64,000 nucleotides of DNA from a virus: IMG/VR virus record IMGVR_UViG_3300009073_000002; one strand, written 5' to 3'. The notes beneath the pieces are model-generated. The model saw only the letters and a list, made by a program, of their open reading frames with translations, searched no databases and was not told where the DNA came from. Shown piece after piece: positions 17,975 through 62,118 of the stretch. The translations under genes were made by a program, and so were the position numbers. The first letter of the stretch is position 1. The number at the start of each line of letters is the position of its first letter.

Positions 17975-18208
17975 ATGGACTCTAAACTAGAAGAAGCAGT
18001 AGATCTCATTTTAGAAATGGGTTACTGCAGTGTATCAGCTATTCAAAGGAATTTAATGCTTGGTTATAATCGAGCATGTGGGATTATTGCTGAAATGGAA
18101 AAGCTAAAAATAGTTGGTCCGGCCAGAGGAACAAGACCTAGGGATGTGCTGATAGTAAGTAAAGACGAATTAGGTGAACTACCCACCCACGCCAGAGGCG
18201 ATGGGTGA
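17975..18208 (+). CDS. FtsK-gamma (winged-helix) domain protein; 3' end runs into the TnpB element
   Basis: LEEAVDLILEMGYCSVSAIQRNLMLGYNRACGIIAEMEKLKIVGPARGTRPRDVLI matches the FtsK gamma domain. The last ~10 codons are antisense to the tnpB 3' end. Confidence 0.8.
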   Translation: MDSKLEEAVDLILEMGYCSVSAIQRNLMLGYNRACGIIAEMEKLKIVGPARGTRPRDVLIVSKDELGELPTHARGDG

Positions 18209-18300
18209 GGCTTCAGGAGTCATCACTCCAACTAACGTCGGCAGTTCGTCCTGATTTTCAGTATCTATCCCAGACACCGTTTTATTTAAAGCAAAAGATT
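18159..18300 (-). ncRNA. predicted TnpB omega/right-end RNA (extent approximate)
   Basis: In known TnpB systems the guide RNA derives from the tnpB 3' end plus the right end of the element. Here a CACCCACGCC-AGA-GGCG-A-TGGGTG hairpin abuts the stop codon. Confidence 0.35.
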
Positions 18301-19440
18301 TAATATTTATGGCAGCATTAACATCACGATCAAGAACAGTAGAGCAACTGTTACAAGTCCACTCTCTATCCGAAAGTTGGAGGTCGTTGTTTATGCTACC
18401 ACAATTTGAGCACGTTTTACTTGAAGGAGCAAATCGACCTATGCGAAGAATATTATTCCCATACCATTCGGCTTTATATTCAAGCATATTCACAAAAGTA
18501 GACCAACTGGCGTCGGTTATCGCTTGTGCTAAGTTGTGGTTCTTAACCATATTTTTTACTGCAAGAGTTTCTAAAGCTATCGTTTGGTTCTCACGAATTA
18601 ACTTAGTCGAAACTTTGTGTAAAAAATCTTTTCTTTTATTTACTACATCTTCATGGAGTTTGGCAAGGCGTAGCCTTGACCTCTTTCCTTTATGTTTTGA
18701 ATACCTACGTTGTGCAAATCTTAATCTAGATTGCGCTTTACGTAAATACGTAGGGTTTTCAAATACTTGGCCATCTGAAGTGATAGCAAAATCTTTAATT
18801 CCAAGATCAATACCTATTGTAGATTCAGATTTTACTTTAGATTTGGCAGGAATCGATTCACCAGTATCGCAGAGGATAGAAGCAAAATACTTACCAGTAG
18901 GAGTTACACTAATAACAGCACTTTTAATTAATCCTTTGGTTGGTCTATGTAGAATTATCTTAATACCTTTCTTTCCAAACTTAGGTATAATCAATCGGTC
19001 TTTTTTTATTTTTAGATACTGCGGTACAGCAAATGATCCTCGATTGGACTTCTTTTTGAATTTAGGAAATCCTTCACCTTTAAAGAACCTTTTAAAAGCA
19101 ATATCCATATTTTGGATTGATTGTCCTAAAGATTGCGAGTTTACTTCTTTTAGAAATTCAAATTCTTTCTTTAAATCTGGGAACTGCTTAATTAAATCGA
19201 ATGCAGATAAATTCACTTTATTTCCTAAGTATGCAGAATTCTTAGTCTCTAAAGCTAGATTATACACTAATCTACAACATCCAATATGTTTATGGATGAG
19301 AACCTTTTGAGATTCAGTAGGATATATTCTGTATTTGAAAGATTTATACATTAAATATTATAACTATAATGTTTTGAGAAAAGTTTCAGTATCTCAAAAT
19401 TATTTTAAATATAAGATTAAAAGGAGTCGTGTAATAAATA
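18170..19440 (-). mobile_element. TnpB-only IS200/IS605-family (IS1341-like) element; ends approximate
   Basis: A TnpB ORF with a GC-rich hairpin at its 3' end (18184..18207) and an imperfect palindrome TTTTGAGA...TCTCAAAA upstream (19371..19398). No tnpA gene is present. Confidence 0.6.
18179..19351 (-). CDS. tnpB: TnpB RNA-guided endonuclease (OrfB_IS605 + zinc ribbon)
   Basis: YRIYPTESQKVLI...CCRLVYN, RuvC-I IGIDLGIKDFAITSDG, E in ALETLAVKNM, CSNCG...CNSC...DRDVNAAINI. Confidence 0.9.
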   Translation of the reverse strand: MYKSFKYRIYPTESQKVLIHKHIGCCRLVYNLALETKNSAYLGNKVNLSAFDLIKQFPDLKKEFEFLKEVNSQSLGQSIQNMDIAFKRFFKGEGFPKFKKKSNRGSFAVPQYLKIKKDRLIIPKFGKKGIKIILHRPTKGLIKSAVISVTPTGKYFASILCDTGESIPAKSKVKSESTIGIDLGIKDFAITSDGQVFENPTYLRKAQSRLRFAQRRYSKHKGKRSRLRLAKLHEDVVNKRKDFLHKVSTKLIRENQTIALETLAVKNMVKNHNLAQAITDASWSTFVNMLEYKAEWYGNNILRIGRFAPSSKTCSNCGSINNDLQLSDREWTCNSCSTVLDRDVNAAINIKSFALNKTVSGIDTENQDELPTLVGVMTPEASPIASGVGG

Positions 19441-19447
19441 AAAAGTT

Positions 19448-19455
19448 TATATTTG
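19448..19455 (+). promoter_or_regulatory. Bacteroidota-type -7 box TATATTTG upstream of the structured RNA candidate
   Basis: TATATTTG, then 8 nt, then GGGGG at 19464. Confidence 0.45.
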
Positions 19456-19463
19456 TAATATAT

Positions 19464-19875
19464 GGGGGCGAATTGAATCGACTGGAAGCAGTTGGGTGTT
19501 GGTCGTAGCAAGATGGAAACTATCTGTAAAAGTTTCAAACCTTAATTGGAAACGATTATACAAACTCAAGCAAGGATCTCCAGGAGGTTGTTGCAAGTGA
19601 GGCAGATTTCGCGATAGCTGATCTGTTAGAAGGTACTGGCGTTGCCTCTTCATTCGTGAAGGAAAATGCACAGTTGGAGTTAGTCTAACCAAACATCCTG
19701 CATCGGGAGAAATAATAGATGATGGTGGAGCTGCCATTGGCAGCCTTTAGAGGAAAGCTTTATACAAACCTATGCTACTAAAAAGACTGATATTAAACGC
19801 TTAGCAGGACCTCGGGTCGTACCGAGCGCTTCCACGAAGCACTCTTTAGCAAATAGCTAGAGAGTGCCATTATTC
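19464..19875 (+). ncRNA. orphan structured RNA candidate (about 410 nt) with a tmRNA-like 5' end
   Basis: ORF-free and visibly more GC-rich than its surroundings. It has a UUCG-capped hairpin (19647..19662), a 12-bp terminal hairpin (19839..19867) and long-range pairing TGGAAGC (19483) with GCTTCCA (19828). Confidence 0.4.
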
Positions 19876-19894
19876 TTAATTAAATCATATTATT

Positions 19895-20128
19895 ATGCCA
19901 AAAAAAATGGGTAAAAAAACATCTTATGGTAAAGATGTAAAAGGAGCTGAGAAGAGAGGAACAGGAGGTGGAGCGAGAAGAAAGATTGCATCTTTAATGA
20001 AGAAAGGATGGACACAATCTAAAATCGGTAAAAGAGTCGGTAGATCAGCTAGTACTATCTCTCAAATTCACACAGGAGCAATTCAGGATGTACCTGCAGG
20101 TCTCGCTGCTAAGCTAAGAAAGATTTAA
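19895..20128 (+). CDS. small basic helix-turn-helix protein
   Basis: GWTQSKIGKRVGRSASTISQIHTG looks like an HTH. Confidence 0.55.
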   Translation: MPKKMGKKTSYGKDVKGAEKRGTGGGARRKIASLMKKGWTQSKIGKRVGRSASTISQIHTGAIQDVPAGLAAKLRKI

Positions 20129-20332
20129 AGTGACTTTAGATCAAAGATTAATGGAGTCTAAGCAAATATGGTTAGACTCCATTAAAAAATACAAACCATA
20201 TAAAGTGAGATCAGTAATAAGTAATTAATAACCATTTAAAATCAAATAATAATCAAATCAACAACAACAATATCTAATTTAAAAAAAGAGAATGTTTTTG
20301 TATCGTTTTCAGGAGGTAGAACATCAGCTTAT

Positions 20333-21124
20333 ATGTGCCAGTATTTGCTTAAAAATCATCCTGATAATAACTATCAATTTTTATTTGCTAATACAGGTAA
20401 AGAAAAGAAAGAGACTTTAGATTTTGTACATAATTGTGATGTGGAAATGGGGCTTAATTTATCTTGGATAGAGTATGATCCCCAAGACGAATATGGAAAG
20501 AAAAACTGGTTTAAATTAGTTGACTATGAAACTGCTTCAAGAAATGGAGAGCCATTTGCTAAATTCATAAAGAAGGAAAGAATACCTAATTCGGCATACC
20601 CTAATTGTAGTGGTAGACTTAAATCTTTACCAATGCATAATTATATAAAATATCACCTTAAATGGGAAGATTATTATACATGTATAGGTATCAGATATGA
20701 TGAAAGGAAAAGGGTTAGAAATTGGGTTAAAGCTAATGAGAAAAAATACTTATATCCTTTAATAACTGATCATCGAATTGATGAAATGTTTGTAAGGAAT
20801 TATTGGGCCAAACAAGATTATGATTTGAACTTGAAAGATTATCAAGGTAATTGTGATTTTTGTTACAAAAAATCATTTAGAAAACTACTTACTTTAGCAA
20901 GTGAAGATCCAGATGGTTTAGATTGGTGGTCAGAAATGGAGGAAAAACACGGTGACGGATATACTTTCTTTAGGGATAATATTAGTGCAAATGAAATAAG
21001 AGAGTTATCTAAAAATAAGAGATTTGAAAAAGTTAAGGACTTACATCAACAAAGAAATATCAGTAATTATTTGTTCGATATGGATGCAGAAGCCACTTGT
21101 TTCTGTAACTTAGATGAATATTAA
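20333..21124 (+). CDS. PAPS-reductase/PP-loop ATP-pyrophosphatase family protein (true start unresolved, upstream of 20333)
   Basis: The PP-loop motif VSFSGGRTSAYM is encoded in frame at 20300..20335, before the first in-frame ATG. See the finding for 20151..20335. Confidence 0.7.
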   Translation: MCQYLLKNHPDNNYQFLFANTGKEKKETLDFVHNCDVEMGLNLSWIEYDPQDEYGKKNWFKLVDYETASRNGEPFAKFIKKERIPNSAYPNCSGRLKSLPMHNYIKYHLKWEDYYTCIGIRYDERKRVRNWVKANEKKYLYPLITDHRIDEMFVRNYWAKQDYDLNLKDYQGNCDFCYKKSFRKLLTLASEDPDGLDWWSEMEEKHGDGYTFFRDNISANEIRELSKNKRFEKVKDLHQQRNISNYLFDMDAEATCFCNLDEY

Positions 21125-59823: not shown

Positions 59824-59903
59824 GGTCAGGTAGCCACCCTCCTCTTCTAAAGGAGTAAGTGTAATTGGAGCTGAAAATCGGGGTTCGAATCCCTGTCTGA
59901 TCA
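59824..59903 (+). tRNA. atypical tRNA-like gene, anticodon-like loop UCU (Arg)
   Basis: 7-bp acceptor GGTCAGG/TCTGATC and T-arm CGGGG-TTCGAAT-CCCTG. The hairpin CTCCT-CTTCTAA-AGGAG starts only 8 nt after the acceptor strand and is followed by 23 nt. Confidence 0.4.
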
Positions 59904-59928
59904 CTATTAAATAATAAATTTATTATTG

Positions 59929-62027: not shown

Positions 62028-62033
62028 ATAAAT

Positions 62034-62113
62034 GATTGATCCTCGGATTCGAACCGACCTCTGCCATTGCCACTCACTTTTCAGCGCGGGAGGAATCGAA
62101 CCTCAAAATCAAT
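62034..62113 (-). tRNA. degenerate/atypical tRNA-like element (no assignable anticodon arm)
   Basis: Acceptor ATTGATT/GATCAAT, a 3' T-arm GTCGG-TTCGAAT-CCGAG, and a second T-arm-like hairpin GAGG-TTCGATT-CCTC where the D arm should be. Confidence 0.3.
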
Positions 62114-62118
62114 CATAG

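Follow-up and report, generated by a model that had tools for sequence, protein, structure and literature searches.

In the present study we have analysed a stretch of 64,000 nucleotides of viral DNA (IMG/VR record IMGVR_UViG_3300009073_000002, hereafter the window), and we propose that its positions 19464-19834, on the plus strand, very probably represent a phage-encoded gene for a one-piece transfer-messenger RNA (tmRNA, ssrA). That the RNA is a homologue of tmRNA is almost certain; that this homologue is also active in trans-translation is what our analysis makes likely, at a strength clearly below that of the homology. The gene is of a known kind and not a new element, and is a clearly divergent variant which is invisible to current annotation tools. 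The original prediction for this locus, made from the letters alone, had described an orphan structured RNA of about 410 nt and had allowed, among other options, a diverged tmRNA relative. The latter turned out to be right, as indicated by the tRNA-like domain, the long helix P2, the layout of the first pseudoknot (PK1) and the covarying relatives, and the 410 nt correspond to the primary transcript, the mature RNA being 371 nt plus CCA.

The two ends of the RNA form a complete tRNA-like domain. With RNA position 1 set at window position 19464, the plus strand folds at -133.9 kcal/mol (z = -3.8, equalled by none of 100 shuffles) and the minus strand reaches z = -2.5. The unconstrained minimum free energy (MFE) structure of nucleotides 1-371 displays the acceptor stem, the T arm and P2, that is, the outer architecture of a tmRNA. 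The acceptor stem pairs nucleotides 1-7 (GGGGGCG, 19464-19470) with 364-370 (CGCUUCC, 19827-19833) at seven of seven positions, including the wobbles G3·U368 and G4·U367 (G3·U70 and G4·U69 in a tRNA), and is followed by the discriminator A at 19834. The T arm CUCGG/GUCGUA/CCGAG (19811-19826; stem strands at nucleotides 348-352 and 359-363) has 5 bp and a 6-nt loop, and the 3' strand of the acceptor stem abuts it directly with no spacer. Both elements had escaped the original prediction, which stated that no 3' strand complements GGGGGCG and that there is no T loop. Since both halves of the tRNA-like domain are present, the suggestion of a truncated RNA whose 3' portion was displaced by an insertion sequence (IS) does not hold. 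No relevant match to a 3' acceptor strand CGCCCCCA was detected in other parts of the window.

Next to the acceptor 5' strand lies the D-loop analogue AAUUGAAUC followed by GAC (19471-19482), which supplies the 5' half of the tandem G·A motif where P2a begins; it is the same as in three related loci (L004, L187 and L188, see below) and aligns with the Rfam tmRNA_permuted consensus. G17-A18-C19 stand opposite G344-G345-A346, in agreement with UCGAC…GGAC, a motif conserved at this base. A long irregular helix in the MFE structure, 19-47/310-344, corresponds to P2, with its 5' strand at 19482-19510 and its 3' strand at 19773-19810, the conserved GGAC (19807-19810) being at the end of the latter. 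We scanned both strands of the window for a joint motif, defined as a GGGG start with a 7-nt strand pairing at seven of seven positions 200-510 nt downstream, an A right after that strand and a 5-bp stem with a 6-8-nt loop right before it. Only one of the 82 GGGG starts passes, the one at 19464, and its T arm is also preceded by GGAC. A relaxed scan (GGG start, GGAC optional) of 100 kb of unrelated phage gave six A/T-rich matches, none of them with GGAC or UCGAC.

The comparison with relatives supports the same pairings. Related loci, denoted here by L numbers, were fetched by pattern scans with the 5' motif alone (GGGGNNGANNNGAATCGACNGG and variants), and their 3' halves played no part in the choice. 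The scans yielded 20 IMG/VR loci, at least one metagenome contig (L028) and two contigs from metagenome-assembled genomes (L187 and L188); the comparison set comprises 23 related tmRNA loci with 20 distinct sequences. A 22-nt 5' motif, GAAUCGAC, is common to the IMG/VR loci L004, L126, L137, L140, L144, L146, L168 and L178 and to contig L028, and in AAUUGAAUCGAC neither L004 nor L028 differs from the window. All fetched relatives possess a complete tRNA-like domain by the joint-motif test, and they are genuine tmRNAs. Rfam gathering scores for tmRNA models are 47-50 bits; RF00023 gave 73.5 bits for L004, 67-159 bits for all 18 IMG/VR candidates searched, 122 bits for L187 and 119 bits for L188, with L028 (29.4 bits, E 1e-8) under the gathering score. 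Most of the matches listed when metagenomes and genomes were scanned with the pattern were due to coding sequence from Faecalibacterium and the human gut, which is not tmRNA, and were discarded.

For 19 distinct sequences, the window included, we aligned the first 22 nt together with the tRNA-like part at the 3' end and scored 16 pairs (acceptor stem, first four P2a pairs and T stem). The cells pair in 95.7% of cases against 79.8% in shuffles, and seven pairs vary at both positions. With a value of 0.42, the covariation score exceeds that of shuffled alignments (0.106), is reached by none of 500 shuffles, and is far lower in slid registers. Covariation in relatives, proposed earlier as a check, is therefore found for the acceptor, T and P2a pairs; the P2 pair 20/343, for instance, is AU in 13 sequences, UA in five and GC in one. 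The window pairs at every acceptor and T-stem position. Its T stem departs from the commonest pair at three of five positions, all three compensated, and an intact stem with so many differences points to compensatory change under selection. A covariance model (R1) covering the final 41 nt was derived from the 3' ends of 18 other tmRNAs, with the window and L028 left out, and was run across both strands of the whole window with filters off. Its best match is 19795-19834 on the plus strand, full length, with 17.4 bits and E about 0.02; the second is the T arm and acceptor strand of a tRNA-Ala (63912-63936), a resemblance expected for a tRNA-Ala mimic.

These results bear directly on the possibility of a structured RNA unrelated to tmRNA, either part of a TnpB/IS605 element, a guide-type RNA or a new phage noncoding RNA, in which the tmRNA-like 5' end would be a coincidence. 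The RNA lies 112 nt from the start codon of a divergently oriented tnpB gene, which encodes a protein of 390 aa (18179-19351, minus strand; Pfam OrfB_IS605 and Cas12f1-like_TNB), and no Rfam family is found at gathering score, which would suit such an explanation. However, the 3' end independently matches the tRNA-like domain as the top R1 match, the joint motif is unique in the window, and the G·U pairs work on the plus strand only. Homologous RNAs occur in unrelated contigs, and no TnpB-sized open reading frame (ORF) is found beside the RNA of L028, so that neither a different RNA nor the left end of the IS, both entertained in the original prediction, fits the data. For a TnpB guide RNA the usual place is the 3' end of its tnpB gene, so that here it would be expected near 18180 on the other strand. 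Thus, the likeness to TnpB ωRNAs and IS200/IS605 ends is restricted to adjoining the transposon gene, the window RNA being located 5' of tnpB on the opposite strand and carrying a tRNA-like domain. We consider an unrelated RNA highly improbable and conclude with near certainty that the tmRNA is not part of the IS.

Still less credible, and practically negligible, is that the region codes for a protein through a minus-strand ORF of 96 codons (19447-19737). This ORF is present and starts with ATG, but it has no Pfam match, is not called as a gene in the ENA contig and spans only part of the G+C-rich block, and the evidence from structure and homology lies on the plus strand. The G+C content of the RNA block is 0.42 against 0.26-0.33 in the flanks, and no plus-strand ORF of at least 60 aa covers the block, so the rise in G+C and the lack of a credible ORF noticed earlier were both confirmed. 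A two-piece (permuted) tmRNA differs in the order of its parts, since in the window the coding-type end comes first and the acceptor-type end last; no CGCCCCC-type strand was found upstream of the RNA.

Internal to the tRNA-like domain, the RNA has the layout of the coding part of a tmRNA. The predicted PK1 occupies nucleotides 48-73 (19511-19536), AGAUG-GAAAC-UAUCU-GUAAAA-GUUUC, in the order stem 1, stem 2, stem 1', loop and stem 2'; its loop is GUAAAA, most homologues have the same start position (nt 46-48) and the same layout, and its hairpin can be aligned with the Rfam model tmRNA_permuted. Downstream of PK1 comes an 11-nt spacer, AAACCUUAAUU (19537-19547), which fits both the Rfam consensus AAAAAAUAAuU and the spacer of L004, …UGUUAAUU. 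The spacer ends in UAAUU and then comes the Gly codon GGA at 19548, as in related viral tmRNAs. GGAAAC does occur at 19515 and 19548 and GTTTC at 19532, as originally described; this duplication is explained by two separate roles, the first copy providing stem 2 of PK1 and the second the resume codon with the codon after it. The tag frame (19548-19688, plus strand) has no start codon, runs from the GGA resume codon through 46 codons (GNDYTNSSKDLQEVVASEADFAIADLLEGTGVASSFVKENAQLELV) and stops at UAA 19686-19688. The peptide ends …LELV (AQLELV), and it is the longest of the set. The statement that no tag ORF ends in …ALAA was thus correct as regards the end, but a start-codon-less frame does exist. 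The UUCG-capped hairpin described around 19647-19662 is also present.

Long tags are found in several relatives. Four of them (L140, L143, L144 and L146) have a conserved tag of 23-24 aa, GENPFF[AVI]LAGL…VALA(V)A, three (L126, L137 and L178) a conserved tag of 21 aa, G[ND]VLN[KN]MAA…SV[VL]A, and the Rfam-confirmed L168 a tag of 40 codons ending YAYAA. The tag of L028 has 36 codons and ends VQLQKV, similar to AQLELV in the window, two sequences being too few for a motif. No Pfam family was found for the tag peptides. L188 (CAYPEN010000002.1, 407 kb) and L187 share near-identical tmRNA 5' halves, with tags of 29 and 15 aa ending AAFA and YAFA, respectively; their bins are labelled Gammaproteobacteria and Candidatus Levyibacteriota, labels which look mutually inconsistent. 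In the JGI 3300005647 assembly the phage of the window is broken within the tmRNA gene, one contig ending at 19545 and another starting at 19571 (L001 and L194), and in the second contig the gene caller took the tail of the tag frame, up to its stop codon, for a partial gene of 38 aa.

The flanks are those expected of an independent transcription unit as far as sequence can predict them, and the promoter, strand and terminator assignments made originally stand. The putative Bacteroidota-type -7 box TATATTTG (TAnnTTTG; 19448-19455, plus strand) lies 8 nt before the 5' end of the RNA, GGGGGCGAATTGAATCGACTGGAAGC, at 19464, and similar boxes precede the related viral tmRNAs L137, L178 and L144. 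The 12-bp terminator-like hairpin (19839-19867) in the 3' trailer is confirmed and is the sole terminator-like site in 19300-19950; related viral tmRNAs have a hairpin at the equivalent place. After A371 (19834) the DNA reads CGAA, so CCA is not encoded, as in 15 of 24 loci with the window counted. The predicted mature 3' end is …CGCUUCCA at 19834, and CCA added post-transcriptionally would give about 374 nt.

Another pairing had been put forward originally as the long-range helix, between TGGAAGC at 19483 and GCTTCCA at 19828. Both motifs are located correctly, and they pair at seven of seven positions in the window (RNA 20-26/365-371), but at only two to six of seven in the homologues. When this helix is forced, the fold reaches -108.5 kcal/mol against -114.1 kcal/mol for the tmRNA fold, which is 5.6 kcal/mol worse, and it competes with the acceptor stem and P2a, the conserved pairings; we judge it a coincidence. 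The sequence GTACCGAG near the 3' end, taken previously as an ssrA motif, represents here the T loop and T stem, and its occurrence in E. coli ssrA is also coincidental.

On this basis we propose how the tmRNA would act. Transcription would start at the Bacteroidota-type promoter of the gene itself, and the 3' trailer, hairpin included, would be trimmed off, after which a CCA-adding enzyme would add CCA. The host alanyl-tRNA synthetase (AlaRS) would charge the RNA with alanine through G3·U70 and the discriminator A73; the G3·U70 wobble is found in all 19 aligned sequences and, with the discriminator A, constitutes the AlaRS identity. Bound by SmpB, probably that of the host, the charged RNA would enter ribosomes stalled on broken or non-stop mRNAs. 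Translation would then resume at GGA 19548 and terminate at UAA 19686, freeing the ribosome and releasing a chain that carries the Ala and a 46-residue tag ending …LELV.

A number of observations weigh against a functional tmRNA. The standard detectors are silent: at gathering thresholds Rfam finds in the window only 13 tRNAs (59.5-64 kb) and no tmRNA, ARAGORN likewise reports 13 tRNAs (a set not identical to that of Rfam) and no tmRNA, and RF00023 gives no match at E <= 10 in 19300-20000 or in a search bounded to 19464-19838. The T loop GUCGUA has 6 nt and lacks the canonical U54 and A58, the typical form being the 7-nt UUCRANN, and G4·U69 is found only in the window, the other 18 aligned sequences having G-C there. 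The tag does not end in Ala-Ala, and its length is within chance, as 46 or more sense codons occur in 5.9% of dinucleotide shuffles (P = 0.06). The tag frame crosses the predicted hairpins 102-138, 139-163 and 172-211, the usual place of helix 5 and pseudoknot 2 (PK2), and PK2-PK4 are not recognisable, the MFE structure showing only hairpins (including 267-281). The searches for close relatives found none, so the internal helices and the tag have no support from covariation or conservation. Finally, no SmpB was found in the window by tblastn with an approximate E. coli query or by Pfam on 20 ORFs of 126-200 aa, a weak test, the window being about half of a phage genome of at least 132 kb.

The silence of the detectors can be understood from the relatives. 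ARAGORN detects 10 of the 23 related tmRNAs and misses 13, including all the long-tag ones and L004, and gives a wrong tag for L143, so its silence on the window carries little weight. The failure of RF00023 is attributed to the fact that the window RNA resembles its relatives only at the two ends: MAFFT aligns just these, nhmmer profiles recover only the former of them, the 5' end (E 1.6e-4), and miss the 3' end, and local blastn against all loci returns only the same phage. In the search bounded to 19464-19838, weak matches do appear: the coding piece of tmRNA_permuted (RF04321) on 19464-19621 (16.2 bits, E 0.24), its acceptor piece on 19776-19838 (16.1 bits, E 0.27) and alpha_tmRNA (RF01849) on 19757-19838 (13.1 bits, E 0.044). 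All three are colinear and in the proposed register; they match the consensus at GGGGGCG, UCGAC, the PK1 hairpin, the spacer and the GGA AAC GAU codons, and they place GGAC-CUCGG-GUCGUA-CCGAG-CGCUUCC-A on it. The Rfam and ARAGORN check suggested with the original prediction was hence negative for RF00023 and ARAGORN and gave weak matches, below the gathering score, to the other two families. Nine of the related IMG/VR loci (L126, L137, L140, L143, L144, L146, L154, L168 and L178) pass Rfam and are missed or, for L143, mis-tagged by ARAGORN, and several of these long-tag loci carry TAnnTTTG boxes upstream.

The unusual elbow of the tRNA-like domain has company as well. The D-loop analogue UUGAAUC, with one G rather than GG, is found in five sequences, and every one of them has a deviant T loop (window GUCGUA, L004 CUCGCUA, L028 UUCGUAG, L187 CUCAAUA and L188 UUCGUUA); the 14 aligned sequences with GGAAUC all retain a UUC[G/A]A T loop. 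A canonical T loop and a GG D-loop are typical of tmRNA, not universal, and L004, L187 and L188 are Rfam-confirmed tmRNAs despite their deviant T loops. In tRNA the first G of the D loop stacks beside residue 58 of the T loop, which makes a joint change of both loops plausible. As for the unrecognised pseudoknots, PK2-PK4 are dispensable or replaced in some tmRNAs.

With these points in mind, the main alternative is a tmRNA homologue that does not perform normal trans-translation, being either a decaying gene whose tag stop was lost or a decoy which titrates SmpB or AlaRS. The degenerate T loop, the G·U at 4-69, the tag without Ala-Ala, the silent RF00023 and an open frame compatible with chance could all be read in this way. 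Moreover, an in-frame CAG at 118-120, in the apical loop of hairpin 102-138, sits where helix 5 normally presents the stop; one may speculate that a single UAG-to-CAG change stretched an 11-codon tag to 46 codons. There is also a precedent in mycobacteriophage DS6A, whose RNA consists of the tRNA-like domain (TLD) only and for which an inhibitory role has been described (PMC4131195). On the other hand, the seven acceptor pairs, the five T-stem pairs, three of the four counted P2a pairs and the tandem G·A are intact, and so are PK1, the spacer, the resume-codon layout, the promoter box and the terminator. The deviant T loop itself is shared, together with UUGAAUC, by the Rfam-strong L004, L187 and L188. 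We therefore regard a non-functional homologue as rather unlikely, although far less so than an unrelated RNA, and retain an active tmRNA as the preferred explanation.

Compared with the bacterial one-piece tmRNA (RF00023), the window RNA shares the 7-bp acceptor stem with G3·U70 and A, the abutting T arm, UCGAC…GGAC with the tandem G·A, a long P2, PK1 upstream of an 11-nt A/U-rich spacer, a start-codon-less tag and a size of 371 nt. It differs in the silent RF00023, the 6-nt T loop, the one-G D-loop analogue, G4·U69, the lack of CCA and the unrecognisable PK2-PK4, and in having a tag of 46 codons ending LELV in place of about 10 codons ending ALAA. The IMG/VR viral tmRNAs and L028 share with it the 5' motif, long tags (21-40 aa), a Gly resume codon preceded by …AAU(U) and, in many cases, the absence of CCA; in several of them a TAnnTTTG box is present and a terminator hairpin directly follows the discriminator. 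L028 is also under the Rfam gathering score and has a tag ending …QLQKV against …QLELV. All except L028 pass Rfam, in contrast to the window, most of their long tags end A-A or V-A, and outside the two ends they have no detectable sequence similarity to it. A tblastx of the L028 flanks against the window gave no protein-level match, its sole hit being on a tRNA.

Phage tmRNAs are documented (PMC4131195, PMC7162821, PMC9004378), about 2.3% of sequenced phages carrying ssrA (PMC9004378). The known cases, such as the Bxz1 group, Bacillus phage G, huge phages and the two-piece tmRNA of the OM43 phage Melnitz, are, like the present one, tRNA-carrying phages with their own ssrA; they were found by ARAGORN or Rfam, whereas the RNA of the window is invisible to both, is one-piece and likely belongs to a Bacteroidota phage. 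The proposed roles of phage tmRNAs are to keep hijacked translation running or to tag proteins selectively (PMC9004378; PMC7162821), and a TLD-only phage copy has been suggested to inhibit the host tmRNA by titrating SmpB (PMC4131195). The TLD-only ssrA of DS6A is likewise a non-canonical phage derivative of tmRNA that may act on SmpB (PMC4131195), but the RNA of the window is full length, with P2, PK1, resume site and reading frame all retained.

The phage of the window carries a tRNA array, a GroEL-like gene and a helicase. In GenBank the helicase is matched best by phage csAssE-Sib, Cellulophaga phages and a Bacteroides phage, and these matches, taken with the TAnnTTTG box, would point to a Bacteroidota host. 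The same phage, 100% identical and thus of no use for comparison, was found in JGI, ENA and Logan assemblies by exact-protein look-ups. Neither the exact 22-mer nor the flanking PAPS-reductase-like, helix-turn-helix and GroEL proteins had a match in IMG/VR, and blastn of the RNA against 50,697 GenBank phages gave none, nor did the L140 and L028 queries. PAPS-reductase homologues (52-60% identity) occur in unrelated temperate phages with no tmRNA nearby, and no tmRNA was found in the 100 kb of csAssE-Sib, the best helicase match, that were examined.

With regard to the neighbouring genes, tnpB shares its last 30 nt with the 3' end of an FtsK_gamma-domain ORF in convergent orientation (17975-18208), and consequently the right end of the IS and the guide-RNA scaffold must sit within the 3' portion of tnpB, which is G+C-rich. 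A TTAC (19434-19431) and a hairpin (19374-19401) on the minus strand resemble the left end of an IS608-type element; they lie some 30 nt from the -7 box of the tmRNA, and the insertion may have removed an upstream promoter element of the latter. No second copy of the IS was found that would define these putative ends. The PAPS-reductase-like gene (PHROG 424, homologues of 272-280 aa) misses a canonical in-frame start in the region 20285-20340: its homology extends from 20294 (NVFVSFSGGRTSAY), and ATG does not occur in frame before 20333. The neighbouring frame has an ATG at 20292, just before a run of five T, where one added T would give MFFVSFSGG. The 263-aa call is identical in the JGI, ENA and Logan assemblies. 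Possible explanations are a genuine frameshift, slippage of the ribosome and a start codon of non-canonical type. Two tRNA-like stretches of the tRNA array, 59826-59905 (plus strand) and 62030-62117 (minus strand), contain perfect GGTTCGAATCC T-loop motifs and are called neither by ARAGORN nor by Rfam. In the former an acceptor GGUCAGG/UCUGAUC and an anticodon loop CUUCUAA (UCU) can be drawn and a normal D arm is missing; the latter shows an acceptor UGAUUGA/UCAAUCA and two T-arm-like hairpins.

As a tentative extension, which we hold as no better than a minority possibility, the gene could encode an active tmRNA of a mostly undetected Bacteroidota-type phage class, with a remodelled tRNA elbow (a one-G D-loop analogue and non-canonical T loops) and long tags. 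In the window and L028, the peptide added would have 36-46 residues and end in …QLxxV where other tmRNAs encode an Ala-Ala degron; the phage would thereby rescue ribosomes, and the tagged proteins might meet a fate other than degradation by ClpXP.

For annotation, the consequence is that 19464-19834 should be labelled ssrA. Since phage tmRNAs are usually counted with ARAGORN or Rfam, their frequency, especially in Bacteroidota phages, is probably underestimated. The altered pair of D loop and T loop is a naturally occurring variant with which the reading of the tmRNA elbow by SmpB and the ribosome could be studied. If the RNA is active, the question arises of whether the phage uses trans-translation only for ribosome recycling or also to re-route the tagged proteins.

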